Of a stretch of 64,000 nt of DNA, positions 15,576-22,766 are shown piece after piece (positions within the stretch are counted from its first letter, which is position 1; each line of letters starts with the position of its first letter). The stretch is from Sulfurospirillaceae bacterium (GTDB lineage: Bacteria > Campylobacterota > Campylobacteria > Campylobacterales > Sulfurospirillaceae): positions 288,001-352,000 of the forward strand of contig JAWVXD010000001.1 of the NCBI GenBank assembly GCA_033723415.1, given 5' to 3'. The position numbers and the translations under genes were made by a program. Below the pieces are notes generated by a model, which was given only the letters and a program-made list of their open reading frames with translations, made no database searches and had not been told where the DNA came from.

Positions 15576-15603
15576 GATGGAAGAGGGTCACTCCTCTTTC
15601 ATC
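15576..15603 (+). terminator. stem-loop after ackA, probable intrinsic terminator
   Basis: GATGGAAGAGG-gtcact-CCTCTTTCATC followed by T-rich sequence. Confidence 0.65.
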
Positions 15604-15639: not shown

Positions 15640-15694
15640 AGATAACGTTTGATTTAAATTAAATCAAATATTTTATCCTTAATCTATCTTATCT
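15640..15694 (-). repeat. degenerate attC-like remnant at distal end of array
   Basis: Minus strand AGATAAG-ATAGATTAAGGATAAAATATTTGATTTAATTTAAATCAAAC-GTTATCT; AAC changed to AAG; shares sequence with the 59387-59455 site. Confidence 0.5.
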
Positions 15695-15730
15695 CGTTTT
15701 AGTTAAAACTACAAAATGCACTAGGGTGAC

Positions 15731-16279
15731 TTATCTCTCTTCCAAGGATTTGTTGTCTTCTGGATATTTAAAATCTAAATATGTGAATCCAAACTTACTT
15801 TTTAATCCAAAAATATCTATTTTTTGTCCTTTGTGTAATTTTAAATGTCTATTGCCTTTAAAGACATATACCGTATTAAATGGCTGGTTATAGTTTTTAA
15901 TTCTGATCTCTTCCCAAGCACCTCGCCTCATGACATGTTCGGAGACAACTTTTGTAATTTGTGTTTTTAATATATAAGGTTTTTTATCTGAAAGCAAATG
16001 TAAAACGACTATTGTTTCCCTATTGAAAAATAAATACAAAATAAATATCCAAAACACAATACCTATGACTGTTTTATAAAGCTTACCCTTTTTATTTTTA
16101 TACATCAATATCGCGCCATATATGTAAAATAAAGAGACAAAAGCTATAAATACATACTGCCATAAAGTATCTGTATATACTTCTTCAATGATAATATGAG
16201 AAAAAAAGTCAACGAGCAGAGTTATGGCTATCAAAATATAAAATAACGCAAAAGCTGGTAGGAAAATATATTTTTTTAT
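15731..16279 (-). CDS. hypothetical membrane protein (last cassette); start uncertain
   Basis: ORF track start is TTG 16234; the frame stays open to ATA 16279, which lies 7 nt after AGGA; about three hydrophobic segments. Confidence 0.6.
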   Translation of the reverse strand: MKKYIFLPAFALFYILIAITLLVDFFSHIIIEEVYTDTLWQYVFIAFVSLFYIYGAILMYKNKKGKLYKTVIGIVFWIFILYLFFNRETIVVLHLLSDKKPYILKTQITKVVSEHVMRRGAWEEIRIKNYNQPFNTVYVFKGNRHLKLHKGQKIDIFGLKSKFGFTYLDFKYPEDNKSLEER

Positions 16280-16295
16280 AATTTGTTCCTTTTAA

Positions 16296-16364
16296 AGATA
16301 ACGTTTAAAATGAGCCGATGAATTGCACGCAGGGCAATTTATTGGCTCCTCTGATTTGTTAACT
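16296..16364 (-). repeat. attC site (69 bp)
   Basis: Minus strand AGTTAAC...GAGCCAATAAATTGC-CCTGCGT-GCAATTCATCGGCTC...GTTATCT; overlaps the AbiV-like stop; stem closes with G-T pairs on the + (bottom) strand. Confidence 0.88.
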
Positions 16365-17036
16365 TTTTGCATGATGTACTTTATTCCATTTTCTAGACTT
16401 CAAACTTGTTTTGTATGACCATGTAAAAAGTATTGGATAGTCATTTTCATTAATAATGCCATCCATTTCCCAAACACCCCAATATCCATCATTTTTTGTA
16501 ACCAAATCATGTACCTCAAGAAATTCATGATTTAAGAGAGAAATCATCTGTTTTGCATTTGCTAGTTTTATTTTTTTCGTAGGAATCGACACCCTACTTG
16601 AAGTGTCAATTTTTCTCTTTGAACGCTCAAGTCCCACATAAATTGCTTCTTGCTTTTGAATTTCTAGTTTTTTCTCTTCTACCTTAGATACGAATGCAGG
16701 AGCATAGTCAAATATTTCACTTGCAATAAATGCGAATTGCTTTTTCGGATGCAAATACAATAGTTTTAACCAGTTTTGTTCAAATGTTACATACTCCTCG
16801 TATTCTGCATCACCTTCTTTTGGGAACCCATTATTTGTAATTGTTGAATAGTAATAATGGTCTACCCATTTAGCTTTTGCAAATTCTTCTAAAGCCAATA
16901 CTGAAAGTTGAAAAGCTGATGGAAAAGATTCATTGTTGTAAAGTAGGATTGAATCTTCATGCAATCGTAATGCATTACGCAAGGATTCTTCTGCAATCTT
17001 TTTGAACTTGTATTGACTTAATCCCTTCAAATTCAT
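16359..17036 (-). CDS. AbiV-family (HEPN) abortive infection protein
   Basis: SLRNALRLHEDSILLY...AFQLSVLALEEFAKA...HPKKQ...KQEAIYVG fits the AbiV/HEPN pattern; GAGG SD. Confidence 0.8.
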   Translation of the reverse strand: MNLKGLSQYKFKKIAEESLRNALRLHEDSILLYNNESFPSAFQLSVLALEEFAKAKWVDHYYYSTITNNGFPKEGDAEYEEYVTFEQNWLKLLYLHPKKQFAFIASEIFDYAPAFVSKVEEKKLEIQKQEAIYVGLERSKRKIDTSSRVSIPTKKIKLANAKQMISLLNHEFLEVHDLVTKNDGYWGVWEMDGIINENDYPILFTWSYKTSLKSRKWNKVHHAKS

Positions 17037-17052
17037 TACCTCTTTCTTGTAT

Positions 17053-17122
17053 AGTTAACGGTTGTCGTGAACAATAATTCTCCCGCTAGGGTAAATTATT
17101 GGTCTCCTCGTACTTGTTATAA
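17053..17122 (-). repeat. attC site (70 bp)
   Basis: Minus strand TTATAAC...CAATAATT-TACCCTAGCGGGAG-AATTATTG...GTTAACT. Confidence 0.88.
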
Positions 17123-17677
17123 ACCTTTTAATTTATAAGCATAGTGACTATTTTTAAAAGTTTCATTTACTAAGCCTTTTCTTGGTGATGTTTCAATGTC
17201 TTTGGACTCTATATCAATGTTTTTAAATTTAATTTTTTCATTAGTTTCTACCATAGCTAAAAAATCTTCTTTTGAAGATGGTTTTAATATATCTATTAAT
17301 TCATCAATAAATTTTGATTGTGAAAATTTCTTATTGCTTTCAATACAAATTACTTCTTTTATTAAAATGCCACCAAAACTTGTTCCATTGCCAAAAGTAA
17401 AATCTAAACCTTTATGCTTATAGTTTGGATTTATGCTAATTTTATGAAGGTACCATACTGCATTCAGTAATTGCCTGTTTTTTGCACGTTTGTATTTTAA
17501 AGCATGACTGTTTTCATCTTGATGATTAGTATTATTATAATAGTAAAACTCAATATTTGAGATTCTATATTTTTTCGAATTTACTAATAAAATATGTTCA
17601 TTCAAAATTTCATTTGCAATTCTGTAGAAATCTTGTTCAATTGTTTTTATACTTGTATCATTTATTGTTAAGTCCAA
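17117..17677 (-). CDS. hypothetical protein, probable AAG/MPG-like DNA glycosylase fold
   Basis: YRISNIEFYY..D..SH..WYLH..GGILIKEV..IETSPRKGL parallels MPG motifs GRIVETEAY..D.ASH..AYVY..AVLIRA..PRIGI; TTG start after AAGGA. Confidence 0.55.
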   Translation of the reverse strand: MDLTINDTSIKTIEQDFYRIANEILNEHILLVNSKKYRISNIEFYYYNNTNHQDENSHALKYKRAKNRQLLNAVWYLHKISINPNYKHKGLDFTFGNGTSFGGILIKEVICIESNKKFSQSKFIDELIDILKPSSKEDFLAMVETNEKIKFKNIDIESKDIETSPRKGLVNETFKNSHYAYKLKGL

Positions 17678-17692
17678 GAAGTTCCTTTTTGT

Positions 17693-17776
17693 TTATAACG
17701 GGGGCGCGGGTGAGTGACTGCCGTTGGAAAATCTTTGGATTTTCCAACGGTTGATTGCTCCTCCCGCTTGTTATCT
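17693..17776 (-). repeat. attC site (84 bp) of ORF-less cassette, copy A
   Basis: Minus strand AGATAAC-AAGCGGGAGGAGCAATCAACCGTTGGAAAATC...GATTTTCCAACGGCAGTCACTCACCCGCGCCCCC-GTTATAA. Confidence 0.85.
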
Positions 17777-17851
17777 GGTGCGAAGCTCCGGATGACTAGC
17801 GGGTGTTCAACCTGCGCCCCCGTTATCTCGGATGCGTAGCGTCCAAGATAA
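17699..17851 (-). mobile_element. ORF-less 153-bp structured cassette, copy A
   Basis: Begins (G)TTATCT, matching its own AGATAAC; no credible ORF; similar to 21504-21652. Confidence 0.8.
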
Positions 17852-17917
17852 CGTTTAAAATGAGCAATCAAAAAGCCGCTTGCGGGTTTTTGATTGGAGT
17901 GCAAGGTTTTGTTATGC
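17846..17917 (-). repeat. attC site (72 bp)
   Basis: Minus strand GCATAAC...CAATCAAAAACCCGC-AA-GCGGCTTTTTGATTG...GTTATCT; the distal 22 nt (CTCATTTTAAACGTTATCT region) match the 16296 site. Confidence 0.88.
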
Positions 17918-18679
17918 TTTTTTATTAAATAACAACTCAGTTTTTTTGGGGTCATAGCCACTACACTGGACACAATGTAAACAAAACAGAGGCGATTCAC
18001 CATATGTAAACTTGTTGAACTCAAAATCATTTTTCAAAGATTCTAGAATCAATTCTTTCGAATATGGAATCTTTGTTATTCTTGTATATACCATTTCTGG
18101 ATCTTTAACAACATCAAATGTGACTAAATCAATCTCATGAACTATTTTGGTTGCAACAACATTGTTATATTTTTCATTTTCTATATGGTCACATTCTTCA
18201 AAATTGCGTAAACATATGTTACATGTTCCATCAATACTGTTACAAGTAACTTCATTGTAGATATTGTTTGTGATATGCTCACATTCCAAAGGTTCTTTAC
18301 CACAGATTGAACATAAATATTTTTCAGTACCTCTCATACTGAAACCAAAATCATGATGTAAAAGTATATTTGGGCAGTCAGAGTAGTAGTTTTCACCATC
18401 AAATTTACATTGGCATTCATATTTTTCACATAATATTTCTCCAATTTTATGCATTTTTTTCGATATTTCTACTCTTTTGTCTCTATAAAACCAAAAACAA
18501 TTTAGATACTCTTTTAAAACGGATTGCAAATCTTTTTTAACATCATCACTTTTTTTGTTATTAATTTTTTCAATTAGGGCATTTACCTTTATTGAGCTAT
18601 CTTGCGCGACTTTTGGTGGGCTGTCACTATTTATTATCATCATGATTGCTTCAAATGCTGGCTGTTCTGATTTATGCAT
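17912..18679 (-). CDS. Cys/His-rich zinc-binding hypothetical protein with prohead-protease-like motifs
   Basis: Two tandem CxxC-x6-CxH-x5-Y units flanked by GFSMRG and LVTFDVVKDP; start overlaps the upstream stop. Confidence 0.6.
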   Translation of the reverse strand: MHKSEQPAFEAIMMIINSDSPPKVAQDSSIKVNALIEKINNKKSDDVKKDLQSVLKEYLNCFWFYRDKRVEISKKMHKIGEILCEKYECQCKFDGENYYSDCPNILLHHDFGFSMRGTEKYLCSICGKEPLECEHITNNIYNEVTCNSIDGTCNICLRNFEECDHIENEKYNNVVATKIVHEIDLVTFDVVKDPEMVYTRITKIPYSKELILESLKNDFEFNKFTYGESPLFCLHCVQCSGYDPKKTELLFNKKA

Positions 18680-19113
18680 TAGAAATCTTTTAGTGAGTCA
18701 AGTATAGTTTTAATCTCATTTTTATCACCTTCAATTTCTATTTCCACATATTTCCCATCTTTCTTTTTTTTTGTAAATCTTAATTTAATTATTGATTGAG
18801 TGTCAAAATTGTTTTTTATCCAATCATAAATAAAGCTCGACAATATTGAAAATGGAATACCAATGATTAAAGGTAAGATGACAGTTGCGTCTCTTAGAGA
18901 TAAATATTCATAACTTTCTCTCTTTACAACTATATTATTGACTTGATTTTGTTTTAGAACTTTATGTATATCAGGTGTGTACTCGTTGAGAATATCACTG
19001 CTTTCTGAGTATCCTTCTGGCATGATAAAAATTCCATTTTCTGTAAACTGAATATTTCTTTTCTTTAAAGTTTCAGCCACTTCATTAATATCAATGGTTA
19101 TTTCTTTAATCAT
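18679..19113 (-). CDS. small hypothetical protein with one hydrophobic segment
   Basis: VILPLIIGIPFSILSSFIYDWI segment; AAGGAG/AAGGA SD; first gene of a two-gene cassette. Confidence 0.75.
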   Translation of the reverse strand: MIKEITIDINEVAETLKKRNIQFTENGIFIMPEGYSESSDILNEYTPDIHKVLKQNQVNNIVVKRESYEYLSLRDATVILPLIIGIPFSILSSFIYDWIKNNFDTQSIIKLRFTKKKKDGKYVEIEIEGDKNEIKTILDSLKDF

Positions 19114-19140
19114 TTCCTTGCTCCTTTATTTCAACTCTTA

Positions 19141-19197
19141 GCATAACGGTTGACTTCACCAACAGGATTACCTGTTTGGTGCTAGGATTTGTTAGCT
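19141..19197 (-). repeat. attC site (57 bp)
   Basis: Minus strand AGCTAAC...CACCAAACAGG-TAAT-CCTGTTGGTG...GTTATGC. Confidence 0.88.
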
Positions 19198-19198
19198 T

Positions 19199-21481
19199 TT
19201 ATCTTTCAAAAAGATCGTCAATATCATTTGAAAGTAATTGACGTTCTCTATATCTATCTTCATCATAACCATCACCTTGACTTGAAAAATATGAATTAAT
19301 TAGACTGTCTATGTCAATGGAATCAACAATATCATCCGAATTAATATTTATTGTATCGGTGTCAAATTCTATAACCAAATCATCAATGAAGTCATGCAAA
19401 ACATCTTTAATTGATGATTCATCTATATCAAAATCATAGTAATCAAGTGGACTTCTTGTAATGTACGCTGAAATATCTATTTCTGAATGGGCGAAGTCAG
19501 ACAATGCATCTATTAAAGCATCTTGAAGACTATTTTCAAAGTCTGTTATGAATGTCTTATCTGTTAAATTCAAATTGTTAAATATTTCTATTATAAGTGG
19601 AAGATCATCAATTTCATCAATTGAAGTACTGTTTAGTAGTTCTTTTAAATCTATTTGATAATTAAATTCTTTTGTTGCATATACTAATAGTTTTAGCAGA
19701 TCAGTGAAATATATCCCATTATTTGAAACTATATCTATAGTATTTAAAAATGCTTTTATTTTATTATCAAATTCAACTTTATGATCTATATATTTGTCTC
19801 TTATAATTAGCAATGACATACTAAGGAAATATTCATTTTTATTGTCCTTAATATCATATTCCTGAAACAAATAACTAAGGATTTCTTGATAAGTTTGTTT
19901 ATCTATAAAATTATTTTTTTCTAAACTAATTAAATTTGAAATTGATGATTTTGTTTGAAGAGATAAATAAATAAGTTTCAAAAGTTCAATATCTCCTTTA
20001 TATCTATTCATTATGAAATCTGCCAATGATGGATTGAAAAGAGTGTAATTTATGTTACTAGGAGATTGCATATTTCTATTGACAAAGTATTTCACTGTAG
20101 TCTTTATTACATTATTGAACTGATTGTTGATATTGCTTGTAGAAGTGGCTTTTGTGATTTTATTGAGATAGTTATACGATTCATTTAATAACTTCTCGTC
20201 AATACTATTGTTATTAAAAACAATAAGCAAAATTATATTTCTGATAAAATCATCACTTTGACAATCAAATGTATGACTCCAGACCTCTGATGGATTACTT
20301 AAAATACTTAACACATAATTCCAAAAGTTTGACGGCTCTATATCTTCAAAGTTGTTTTTGTTTGTAATGAATGCAATAAGTCTTGGATTGAAGTTTTTAT
20401 GCTTAATAATTTGCATATATCTTCTGTTTTCGTAGATCACATCAATAAAAGATTCAGGTAAAGAACTAAACCAAATATGGTTATATAGTATTTCAGCTTT
20501 ATTAAAATCTGTAAGTCCATCAATTGTCAGGACAAACTCATTTTGATGAATATTTTTATTTTTAAAAATACTACTAATCATATATGCTTGATTGATTATG
20601 TTTGTTCTACTAGTTAAAATAAATTTTTTAGTGCTATCTTTTTTTACTCTGCTAATAAATTGCATAATACTAGAATCATGTTTATGCTCAATGGCATTTA
20701 AAAAGTTACTTCCTAAAAAATCATCAAAGTAAAATACTTGTTTTGTATCTTTGGAGTAAATATTTTCTACTTCTTCTATATCTTTATTAATTAGATAGAA
20801 CTTGTAACCTTGGCTTGAATAAAAGTAACATAAATTTTCTGTTAAAGTGGTTTTTCCTATCCCAGGCTCACCTGTAATTATTAATGCATTAGATTCTTTT
20901 AATATCTCAAGCGCATTTTTATGATTACTAGTATTTACATATAGATGTAGCTTTTCATTTATATCTTCTAGATAACTTTCACTTCTTCCTTCAATAGCAT
21001 TATTTAGTAATCTCATTAATACATTTGTACTACTCAACCATAATTTATAATGATTTTTTTCAATATCAGGAAACTTTTTTAATAAATCATTTAAGTCTTC
21101 CTGTCCATAAATATCATTGTCATTTTTGATAAATGGAGTAAATAGATTTTTAATAGTTTTTTTATTCTCAGAAGATAATGGTAATGAGGTAATAAAATAA
21201 TAGTTTTTTGGTTTTAATAGCTTGACCTTTTCAACTTCATTAATACCTTTATTATTTTTCCTTTTTAGAGATGATATTAATCCTTGAAAACCTGTCTGTA
21301 AATAATGCTTGCACTGAATTATATCTTCTAACCCATTGTTATTGTAATATCGTCCATCTATCCCTCTGTCGCGCCCAGCCTTAAACCGTTCAAATCTTTT
21401 ATTTTTATCTGTTGAAAGTATGTCTATTGATAAGTTTTCAAACTCTTTATCATTTAAACTTGAAAATGTGTAATCAACCAA
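19199..21481 (-). CDS. Mrr-like restriction endonuclease domain fused to a STAND-type (nSTAND3-like) P-loop NTPase
   Basis: EFENL..D..GRDRGID..IIQCKHY (PD-QxK nuclease), Walker A GEPGIGKTT, Walker B VFYFDDFLG, ILTSR, FNPRLI; acidic C-tail. Confidence 0.8.
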   Translation of the reverse strand: MVDYTFSSLNDKEFENLSIDILSTDKNKRFERFKAGRDRGIDGRYYNNNGLEDIIQCKHYLQTGFQGLISSLKRKNNKGINEVEKVKLLKPKNYYFITSLPLSSENKKTIKNLFTPFIKNDNDIYGQEDLNDLLKKFPDIEKNHYKLWLSSTNVLMRLLNNAIEGRSESYLEDINEKLHLYVNTSNHKNALEILKESNALIITGEPGIGKTTLTENLCYFYSSQGYKFYLINKDIEEVENIYSKDTKQVFYFDDFLGSNFLNAIEHKHDSSIMQFISRVKKDSTKKFILTSRTNIINQAYMISSIFKNKNIHQNEFVLTIDGLTDFNKAEILYNHIWFSSLPESFIDVIYENRRYMQIIKHKNFNPRLIAFITNKNNFEDIEPSNFWNYVLSILSNPSEVWSHTFDCQSDDFIRNIILLIVFNNNSIDEKLLNESYNYLNKITKATSTSNINNQFNNVIKTTVKYFVNRNMQSPSNINYTLFNPSLADFIMNRYKGDIELLKLIYLSLQTKSSISNLISLEKNNFIDKQTYQEILSYLFQEYDIKDNKNEYFLSMSLLIIRDKYIDHKVEFDNKIKAFLNTIDIVSNNGIYFTDLLKLLVYATKEFNYQIDLKELLNSTSIDEIDDLPLIIEIFNNLNLTDKTFITDFENSLQDALIDALSDFAHSEIDISAYITRSPLDYYDFDIDESSIKDVLHDFIDDLVIEFDTDTININSDDIVDSIDIDSLINSYFSSQGDGYDEDRYRERQLLSNDIDDLFER

Positions 21482-21503
21482 ATTATTCCTTAGTACTGTT
21501 GTA

Positions 21504-21586
21504 AGCTAACGGGGGCACGGGGGAGTGACTACCATTGGTAAACCTTTAGGTTTTCAATGGCTGATTGCTCCTACCGCGTGTTATCT
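21504..21586 (-). repeat. attC site (83 bp) of ORF-less element, copy B
   Basis: Minus strand AGATAAC-ACGCGGTAGGAGCAATCAGCCATTGAAAACC...GGTTTACCAATGGTAGTCACTCCCCCGTGCCCCC-GTTAGCT. Confidence 0.85.
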
Positions 21587-21652
21587 GGTGCGAAGCTCCG
21601 GATGACTTGCGGGTGTTCAGCCAGCGCTCTAGTTATCTCGAATGCATAGCGT
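21504..21652 (-). repeat. second copy of the ORF-less structured element, at the head of the array
   Basis: Colinear with 17693-17842, roughly 85% identical by eye. Confidence 0.85.
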
Positions 21653-21668
21653 ATTTATTAATGCTAAT

Positions 21669-21674
21669 ATTATA
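21669..21674 (-). promoter_or_regulatory. candidate -10 box (TATAAT) driving the cassette array
   Basis: Perfect TATAAT on the minus strand just upstream of element copy B; AT-rich context makes a chance match possible. Confidence 0.35.
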
Positions 21675-21884
21675 ATTAGATAATTCTTATATATAGTATA
21701 AACACAATTTTATGTAGTATTTAAACTACAATATAAAGTTTAGTATTACTTTTTAGCCTAGATAAACTATTGTTTTGTGATAAAAAGACATTGATTTTAA
21801 GAAATATTTTGCAATAAGATAACAAGTTACTTGATATTTACTCAAATATAATATCAATAAACAACTCCAAAGCTATGATAAAAA

Positions 21885-22229: not shown

Positions 22230-22766
22230 ATGGTTAAAAAACTTTCTATAGTGGGCGTGTTGGTTTTATGTGTTGGTATGAGTGTATATGCTAAAGATTT
22301 TTATGTAAAAATCGGTGCCGGGATGGCAAATGTATCTGAGAAAAGTGCCTATAATTACAATGTAGATTTTAGTAATGCCAAGCTTTATACCGCAGCAATC
22401 GGCAAAAATTTTGGAAATTTTGCTGTTGAAGCGGAATATTCTCATGAAAGTTGTGATTGGAACAACAAAAGTCTCAATTTAAGTGGCAAAGGAACTACAA
22501 ATGGATATATGATAAATGGATATTATAACTTTCCTTTGAATTCAAAATTTGCTCCATATATAGGAGCAGGTATAGGGCATACTAACTTTACGGACGGTGG
22601 ATATACCTCAAGCGGTACTACAGCATATCAAGGGATTTTAGGAGTATCGTATCCAATAAATAACAACTTTAACCTAAATGCTGAATATAGATACAAATAT
22701 GCGAGTTATAAATCAGTTGATTTAACATCAAATAATCTTTTAGTTGGTTTAACTATAAAATTTTAA
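22230..22766 (+). CDS. small outer-membrane beta-barrel protein (Opa/OmpA-like)
   Basis: Signal peptide, alternating beta strands, PYIGAGIG, terminal Phe. Confidence 0.85.
   Translation: MVKKLSIVGVLVLCVGMSVYAKDFYVKIGAGMANVSEKSAYNYNVDFSNAKLYTAAIGKNFGNFAVEAEYSHESCDWNNKSLNLSGKGTTNGYMINGYYNFPLNSKFAPYIGAGIGHTNFTDGGYTSSGTTAYQGILGVSYPINNNFNLNAEYRYKYASYKSVDLTSNNLLVGLTIKF

Follow-up and report, generated by a model that had tools for sequence, protein, structure and literature searches.

An apparently decayed chromosomal integron beside ackA in a Sulfurospirillaceae bacterium and putative satellite attI platforms in its family

The origin, expression and continued loading of attC clusters that have no integron-integrase (CALINs), which are common, are open questions, partly because attI is known in only a few integron classes. 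An array that raises these questions lies on the minus strand between ackA and unrelated genes in a Sulfurospirillaceae bacterium (assembly GCA_033723415.1, contig JAWVXD010000001.1, positions 288,001 to 352,000; this whole stretch of 64,000 nucleotides is referred to as the window). How did cassettes come to be inserted, one behind another, at a locus with no integrase gene? The explanation that we consider probable is that the window holds a chromosomal integron reduced to a 31-bp stub of the integrase gene intI, with its attI crossover lost and with five gene cassettes and two copies of a gene-less cassette, here called E, likely frozen in place; and that related satellite platforms in the family are loaded in trans, with E serving as a lock.

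An integron head and its cassettes

The integrase IntI recombines folded bottom-strand attC sites with attI, and the promoter Pc expresses the proximal cassettes (PMC4889954, 10.1101/2022.09.11.507474; here and below, sources are cited for what their available sections describe). The window array starts with the intI stub, an intI-attI spacer and an attI with a deleted crossover (Table 1). Ten intI codons are kept; they align with the intI remnant of about 65 codons in the related genome G013 (LQKDKKLLDILRDKIR...) and with the beginning of intI in G028, where the gene is intact. The window leader, stub included, is 72% identical over 191 bp to that of G013 (E 4e-24), and related leader copies are found at four other loci of the source genome (C1:7743, C1:8716, C1:86014 and, weakly, C9:65010). 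In relatives with an intact intI, the arrangement TATAAT-N9-AATAAATA likewise stands before the first GTT upstream of that gene; the TATAAT (21674-21669) is conserved, although the sigma-70 scan gives no complete promoter at this place. At the joint between attI and the first E copy 11 nt are missing, which comprise the GTT crossover and the E hairpin's left arm, and a contig of metagenome run X1, possibly the source sample, is identical to this deleted form. Intact attI sites with GTT are present elsewhere in the genome (C1:86011 and C9:65010). Together the stub, the spacer and the broken attI indicate that the array is, judged from its sequence, a decayed integron head plus cassettes and not a bare attC cluster. 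The initial annotation of this DNA had called it an integrase-less cassette array, which is right in that there is no IntI but wrong if taken to mean headless.

That annotation had also paired the 7-mer opening each cassette with a complementary inverse core, and all five pairs were found in place and exactly complementary. In a single orientation, the core is complementary to the cassette's own inverse core in all four intact gene cassettes, and at six of seven positions in the fifth. Since two random cores, drawn from the 80 attI sites of the family described below, are identical with p=0.049, exact closure in four of four gene cassettes has a p of about 6e-6. The third pair, GTTATCT/AGATAAC, is exact, but the AGATAAC at 17770-76 is an inner box and a better R'' is the AGATAAC at 17822-28, which gives an attC of 136 bp. 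The chain, described as unbroken, is in fact interrupted at either end: attI has lost its GTT at 21652/21651, and the closure of the last cassette contains one mismatch (AGACAAC, 15752-58, against GTTATCT) and gives no covariance model (CM) match.

The CM was built from sites of relatives only; 28 short candidates were gathered, five were dropped as truncated, dubious or divergent, and 23 were aligned. In the hand-set structure of these 23 sites 88% of cells pair (slid controls 37-52%), with both-sided changes in 9 of 19 pairs. The model finds the four short attC of the window on the plus (bottom) strand and has no further match below E 0.5 in the rest of the 64 kb; genome-wide it gives 13 sites, in three clusters and two singles (150 of 1479 candidates were scored). 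An earlier CM version, R1, which was sequence-only since RNAalifold gave no consensus pairs on the attC alignment, was not used, and a home-made genome scan for attC was dropped because its 280 matches were mostly spurious and real sites were missed. At each of the four short attC, and at the E attC, the more stable fold is that of the bottom strand. Rfam gave nothing at gathering level in the window, with one chance match (E 3) in the array. The GC content of the cassette bodies is 24-32%, compared with 41% for ackA. Several donors had been proposed from the differing attC; near-identical attC types, however, stand side by side in the intI-linked arrays of relatives (attC3 itself is near-identical to the first attC of such an array in G026), so attC differences alone are not enough to show several donors.

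Some of the cassettes are found alone in other metagenomes. One contig each corresponds to 17906-19148 only (cassette 2, run X5), 16340-17061 (cassette 4, X2) and 17091-17701 (cassette 3, X4), and these matches stop at GTT or within a few bases; cassette 1 is represented by two pieces ending near its boundaries. A Pseudomonas homologue (73%) of the AbiV gene of cassette 4 has the same GTTAACT/AGTTAAC ends and different neighbours. Clear cassette ends were absent at three of the four AbiV homologue loci (L150-L152), and a search of plasmids yielded nothing beyond AbiV homologues and short fragments. The exact cores, the CM matches and the cassettes found singly elsewhere bear out that these are integron cassettes.

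The genome has three PF00589 matches, none of which lies in the window, in agreement with the reported lack of a tyrosine recombinase in the 64 kb; when considered as IntI, none of the three came near the IntI cut-off. A search with TIGR02249 detected no IntI in the 17-contig assembly (best score 53 bits, cut-off 265), and the best tblastn match of a congener IntI, at 26% identity, was to another tyrosine recombinase. Full IntI is present in 8 of 13 congeners, and in the stretch read beside nadD, where congeners keep intI, the source genome has neither intI nor array. With four short attC, the E attC and no intI nearby beyond the stub, the locus is a CALIN by definition, as had been suggested, and not a complete integron, since an intact intI and the attI GTT are both missing. 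The array had been thought to be either served in trans or orphaned. The latter holds, there being no IntI anywhere in the assembly and nothing in it that could provide the service, and from this absence the locus is likely frozen. Its cassettes are likely still read from the surviving predicted promoter.

None of 11 congener ackA stretches carries this array, and several join ackA to sensor kinase or TRAP genes. This empty site would fit an IntI-mediated insertion at a secondary genome site (attG) that never had a platform of its own, a route shown experimentally (10.1101/2022.09.11.507474) and one which, as in SALINs, places cassettes at new chromosomal positions without intI. A single-cassette attG insertion would bring no spacer, attI or intI stub, however, and all three stand at the start of the window array (attI as a remnant), which makes this route very improbable here. 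An outer-membrane beta-barrel gene (22230-22766) lies between the platform and the sensor kinase, and was not seen there in the congener stretches examined. In one congener (L092, G002 C82:1515) an attI with no intI beside it lies in the same interval downstream of ackA in the opposite orientation, apparently an independent arrival.

attI platforms across the family and order

Sites of the form TATAAW-N7-11-AATAARTA-GTT were searched for in 61 family genomes, with the reversed motif as control. The motif occurs 80 times, in 38 of the 61 genomes, compared with five times for the control; 12 sites are beside a full intI, four are beside a fragment and 64 are solo, of which 22 keep a nearly whole spacer. 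Full intI is present in 19 genomes, never in two copies, and these genomes hold 49 of the 80 motifs; G081, a genome in one contig, has nine motifs with a single intI. When trees were built from the 14 and from the 21 longest spacers, solo copies mostly grouped by genome (G009 93%, G008 86%). A solo site behind htpG is shared by nine genomes; its flank is 85-91% identical among them, and the 500 bp that begin after GTT show no similarity. Where solo sites have a detected attC and no intact first E, 7 of 20 close at all seven positions (p 3e-5), and gene-first sites beside a full or partial intI close exactly in five of five cases. Order-wide, 89 of 251 sampled genomes match, with 188 matches (uninspected) against about 41 for the control; these comprise 11-20 of 27 genomes in four families and 0-1 in six others.

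We propose that IntI inserted circular cassettes one by one at attI, and that several loci of the genome received copies of the head (the 5' end of intI, the spacer and attI). These copies would then have lost intI, which in the source organism would finally have gone from the genome altogether. Elsewhere in the family, intI-less satellite platforms would keep promoter and attI, and the one intI that the genome has would load them in trans.

The intI remnants are graded in length, from about 10 codons in the window and about 65 in G013 to 95 aa in G017 and 134 aa plus a remainder in G073, and attI is mutated or deleted at three of the five platforms of the source genome. Both would be expected from ordinary decay. 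On that view each intI-less site began as a complete integron, duplicated or acquired as a unit, whose intI later disappeared at that site; trans loading plays no part, and E is a passenger that is neutral and readily copied. CALINs have been described as arising through intI loss (PMC4889954), which is frequent in Xanthomonas (10.1101/2025.06.18.660453). We regard ordinary decay as unlikely, since no genome of the 61 has two full intI despite up to nine attI, the 22 long solo spacers end near the same left edge, orthologous solo sites diverge exactly from GTT on, and the E subtypes at solo sites are those at the intI-linked attI of the same genome.

An attG-type G/TT was looked for at the left edge of the solo spacers and none was seen. 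At the left edge of most long solo spacers is an imperfect palindrome, TTAA-GGACA..TGTCC-TTAA, with similar motifs inside the spacer, which may be the operator of a regulator. At L044 (G003 C26:70870-71600) a solo attI is directly followed by a gene for a 238-aa tyrosine recombinase in cassette orientation; this recombinase is below the IntI cut-off, and no attC was seen right after it.

The source genome contains further arrays. The second (L017, C1:1-8900) shows strict alternation of E and gene over four units and has two tandem platforms (C1:8716 and 7743), the crossover being mutated in both. Among its attC sites are an alpha/beta hydrolase gene that resembles a former cassette now fixed in place, a restriction-modification gene fusion and a transposase-like gene, which from its resemblance we take to be of the REP-associated type. 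The third (L018, C1:81500-86200) has an intact attI, a GTTAAGT which closes with ACTTAAC, and an internally shortened E; a toxin-antitoxin-like pair and, just beyond the array, a reverse-transcriptase-like gene were judged by eye. A short platform with one cassette lies behind thiamine genes (L019, C9:65010), and there is a single attC at C11:72854.

The gene-less hairpin cassette E

The third cassette of the initial annotation is E, a 153-bp unit with its own attC and no open reading frame. In the intact copy, E2, a 31-bp hairpin extends from GTTATCT to AGATAAC, and the attC is branched, with a second AGATAAC inside it. Read as 136 bp this attC folds with -48.7 kcal/mol (z -11.4), whereas reading it as 84 bp gives -22.4 kcal/mol, and when E2 is folded as a circle 84% of its bases are paired. 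The decayed copy, E1, is 86% identical to E2 over 147 bp (matched at 21507-21652), and its R-box pairing alone has a p of 0.19. The genome has seven copies, two in the window array and five in two other arrays, two of these five being internally deleted. Homologues were found by BLAST in five other family genomes and further subtypes by pattern, giving at least four subtypes with a common layout, across which an inner AG(G)AG motif is kept. E is first at 20 of the 80 attI sites: at 17 of 49 in IntI-bearing genomes versus 3 of 31 in the others (Fisher p 0.016, with kin genomes not independent).

With DNA energy parameters, the cost to R-box pairing is 7.2-8.4 kcal/mol at the four attC upstream of an E with intact hairpin, and 1.7-3.9 kcal/mol when the flank at these four is shuffled. 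Five attC followed by genes give 0.4-2.9 kcal/mol, and a single attC followed by an E whose hairpin is deleted gives 2.2 kcal/mol. When the bottom strand is single-stranded, the 11-bp 5' hairpin of E would capture the R' box of the attC directly upstream; excision there would be hindered, the very stable attC of E itself would stay usable, and recombination would be channelled through E sites. From this modelling, E is predicted to lock the upstream attC and E sites to be preferred, which would explain both the presence of E at position 1 and the E-gene-E-gene alternation.

E stands immediately after the predicted Pc, and promoters are found in Vibrio cassettes that have no gene (10.1101/2023.11.21.568050). 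These points, with the retained AG(G)AG, would also suit an E that acts mainly in transcription or as RNA, be it as promoter, attenuator or structured RNA, and adjusts the cassettes downstream of it, its DNA fold being incidental. This could be true together with the explanation given above, but appears doubtful: the promoter/terminator scan lists no sigma-70-like or terminator-like site inside either copy, there is no Rfam match, only 23 bp of E precede R'', and of the two DNA strands it is the bottom one that has the better fold. At L032 (G003 C3) the end of one E subtype directly joins another, and tandems of E of different types occur.

Several points weigh against a decayed integron with satellites loaded in trans and E as a lock. 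Platforms at the nth locus group by locus and not by genome, and the htpG spacers are cut at different points, so intI was possibly lost independently in each lineage after loading. Of the solo sites with a detected attC and no intact first E, 13 of 20 lack exact closure; a short-type attC was detected downstream at only 31 of the 80 sites (six of these being wrong-strand matches), and three motif matches have no spacer match and are probably due to chance. As kin genomes are not independent, p values are overstated. Service in trans is not current in the source genome or in many relatives, because no IntI was found there, and with an assembly of 17 contigs an intI could sit in a gap. An IntI-based spacer profile has no match to the window spacer, and the link runs via G013 and G028. 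The R-box/L-box structure of the CM was set by hand, RNAalifold having given no pairs. Regarding E, context also reduces the pairing of its own R box (p 0.02-0.87), and the folding calculation ignores IntI binding and supercoiling.

Cargo genes and relation to known systems

Table 1. Features of the array in the window, from the integron head to the end of ackA.
Feature	Position	Strand	Remarks
intI 5' stub	21809..21839	+	TTG as start codon; third codon a stop; D-N-K-L-L-D-I follows
intI-attI spacer, likely PintI/Pc region	21675..21808	.	match to G013
attI left part	21652..21674	-	TATAAT (predicted Pc -10), 9 nt, AATAAATA
E1, decayed E copy opening the array	21510..21651	-	attC 21504-21638
Cassette 1 gene, 760 aa	19199..21481	-	Mrr-like restriction-nuclease domain and nSTAND3 NTPase
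attC1, 57 bp	19141..19197	-	CM E 9.4e-5, bottom strand
Cassette 2 gene A, 144 aa	18679..19113	-	no family
Cassette 2 gene B, 255 aa	17912..18679	-	Cys/His-rich, no family
attC2, 72 bp	17846..17917	-	CM E 1.2e-7
E2, intact 153-bp gene-less cassette	17699..17851	-	31-bp hairpin 17822-17852, branched attC 17693-17828
Cassette 3 gene, 186 aa	17117..17677	-	predicted AAG/MPG DNA-glycosylase fold
attC3, 70 bp	17053..17122	-	CM E 1.7e-9
Cassette 4 gene, 225 aa	16359..17036	-	AbiV-family HEPN
attC4, 69 bp	16296..16364	-	CM E 2.7e-10
Cassette 5 gene, about 167 aa	15731..16234	-	hydrophobic N-terminal half, no family
Eroded terminal attC remains	15640..15758	-	AGACAAC ... GTTATCT; no CM match, sequence read directly
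Terminator-like hairpin 3' of ackA, right edge of insertion	15576..15603	+	

The cargo had been described as defence-like, and for two of the five gene cassettes this is supported by hidden Markov model (HMM) matches. The protein of cassette 1 matches nSTAND3 (E 6e-48) and Mrr_cat (E 2.5e-4) in Pfam, and the PADLOC defence candidate PDC-S73 over its full length (E 5.5e-246, 817 bits, residues 1-760 against 1-751 of 752). That of cassette 4 matches PF18728 (E 1.8e-22, 80.6 bits) and TIGR04498 (E 3.2e-18, 66.5 bits), both over the cut-off (27). The other three have no HMM match to a defence family; neither gene A of cassette 2 nor the gene of cassette 5 has a significant match in Pfam, PADLOC, NCBIfam or PHROG. 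From these sequences the cargo likely serves anti-phage defence in part.

The 255-aa protein of cassette 2 has 265 relatives, among which eight Cys and two His are invariant; 24 relatives searched in Pfam gave one helix-turn-helix match, and 20 in PADLOC gave none. Its model (pLDDT 93) has no fold match at E<=0.001, and a reading as prohead protease (an Atlas lead, 12% of one cluster) was unsupported by the fold searches. The Cys/His-rich domain is also C-terminal in many family-less proteins of about 420 aa. For cassette 3 (model pLDDT 92) the top nine Foldseek matches are all human AAG (E 3.8e-5, TM about 0.55, 9-13% identity). Its family has at least 35 proteins and no Pfam match, Glu43 is invariant, and a profile searched against PDB sequences gave only weak ribosomal matches. 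The modelled fold makes this protein a candidate anti-phage glycosylase, and it may be of an undescribed type. The antiviral glycosylases Dag1/Dag2 (10.1101/2025.10.29.685425) are likewise cassette-borne, with a glycosylase fold invisible to sequence search, but cassette 3 differs in its AAG/MPG fold, and the terms AAG, MPG, methylpurine and alkyladenine are absent from the main text of that paper.

Like described CALINs (PMC4889954), the window has at least two attC, no neighbouring intI and a small array mostly of cassettes of unknown function, and intI loss is one of the routes listed there; unlike them it retains a spacer, a promoter box, a stub of intI and a remnant of attI, and its platform exists in several copies. 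As the program of that paper recognises attI and promoters solely by exact match to class 1-3 sequences, platforms of this kind would go unseen. In Xanthomonas (10.1101/2025.06.18.660453) intI is also frequently inactivated, arrays are frozen and CALINs lie at conserved loci, with trans mobilisation mentioned; the available text describes a single platform there, at ilvD, however, and neither extra attI-bearing platforms nor a minimal hairpin cassette. Anti-phage banks in sedentary integrons (10.1101/2024.07.02.601686) share the small one- or two-gene defence cassettes, with AbiV among the frequent ones, but are long arrays with a working integrase, whereas the window has five gene cassettes and none. 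The gene-less cassettes of Vibrio (10.1101/2023.11.21.568050) and Treponema (PMC6557892) resemble E in having an attC and no open reading frame and in being interspersed among gene cassettes. E differs from them in being almost only attC, in that the 23 bp before R'' form a hairpin with the preceding R', in showing no promoter consensus, in being repeated within arrays and in its enrichment at position 1. A full-text literature search (outside subscription journals and bioRxiv supplements), judged on titles and the starts of abstracts, found no description of multi-copy intI-less attI platforms or of an attC-only hairpin cassette. The array by itself is ordinary; what appears to be new is that attI can be searched for, that satellite platforms occur in several copies and that E is present.

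As the attI motif can be searched order-wide and many intI-less arrays keep a promoter box and a docking site, loading in trans becomes testable. E offers a small natural substrate for the competition between flanking DNA and attC folding, and the window cassettes are candidates for phage-defence screens. More tentatively, and as a possibility that we favour less than the explanation of the window given at the outset, free-living members of the order may have a distributed integron, in which one intI serves several satellite Pc-attI platforms with E as a recombination adaptor, the window being a dead satellite with an AAG-fold glycosylase possibly of an undescribed anti-phage type. If this is true, many cassettes would hold the first, expressed position at once, and E would decide which units move.

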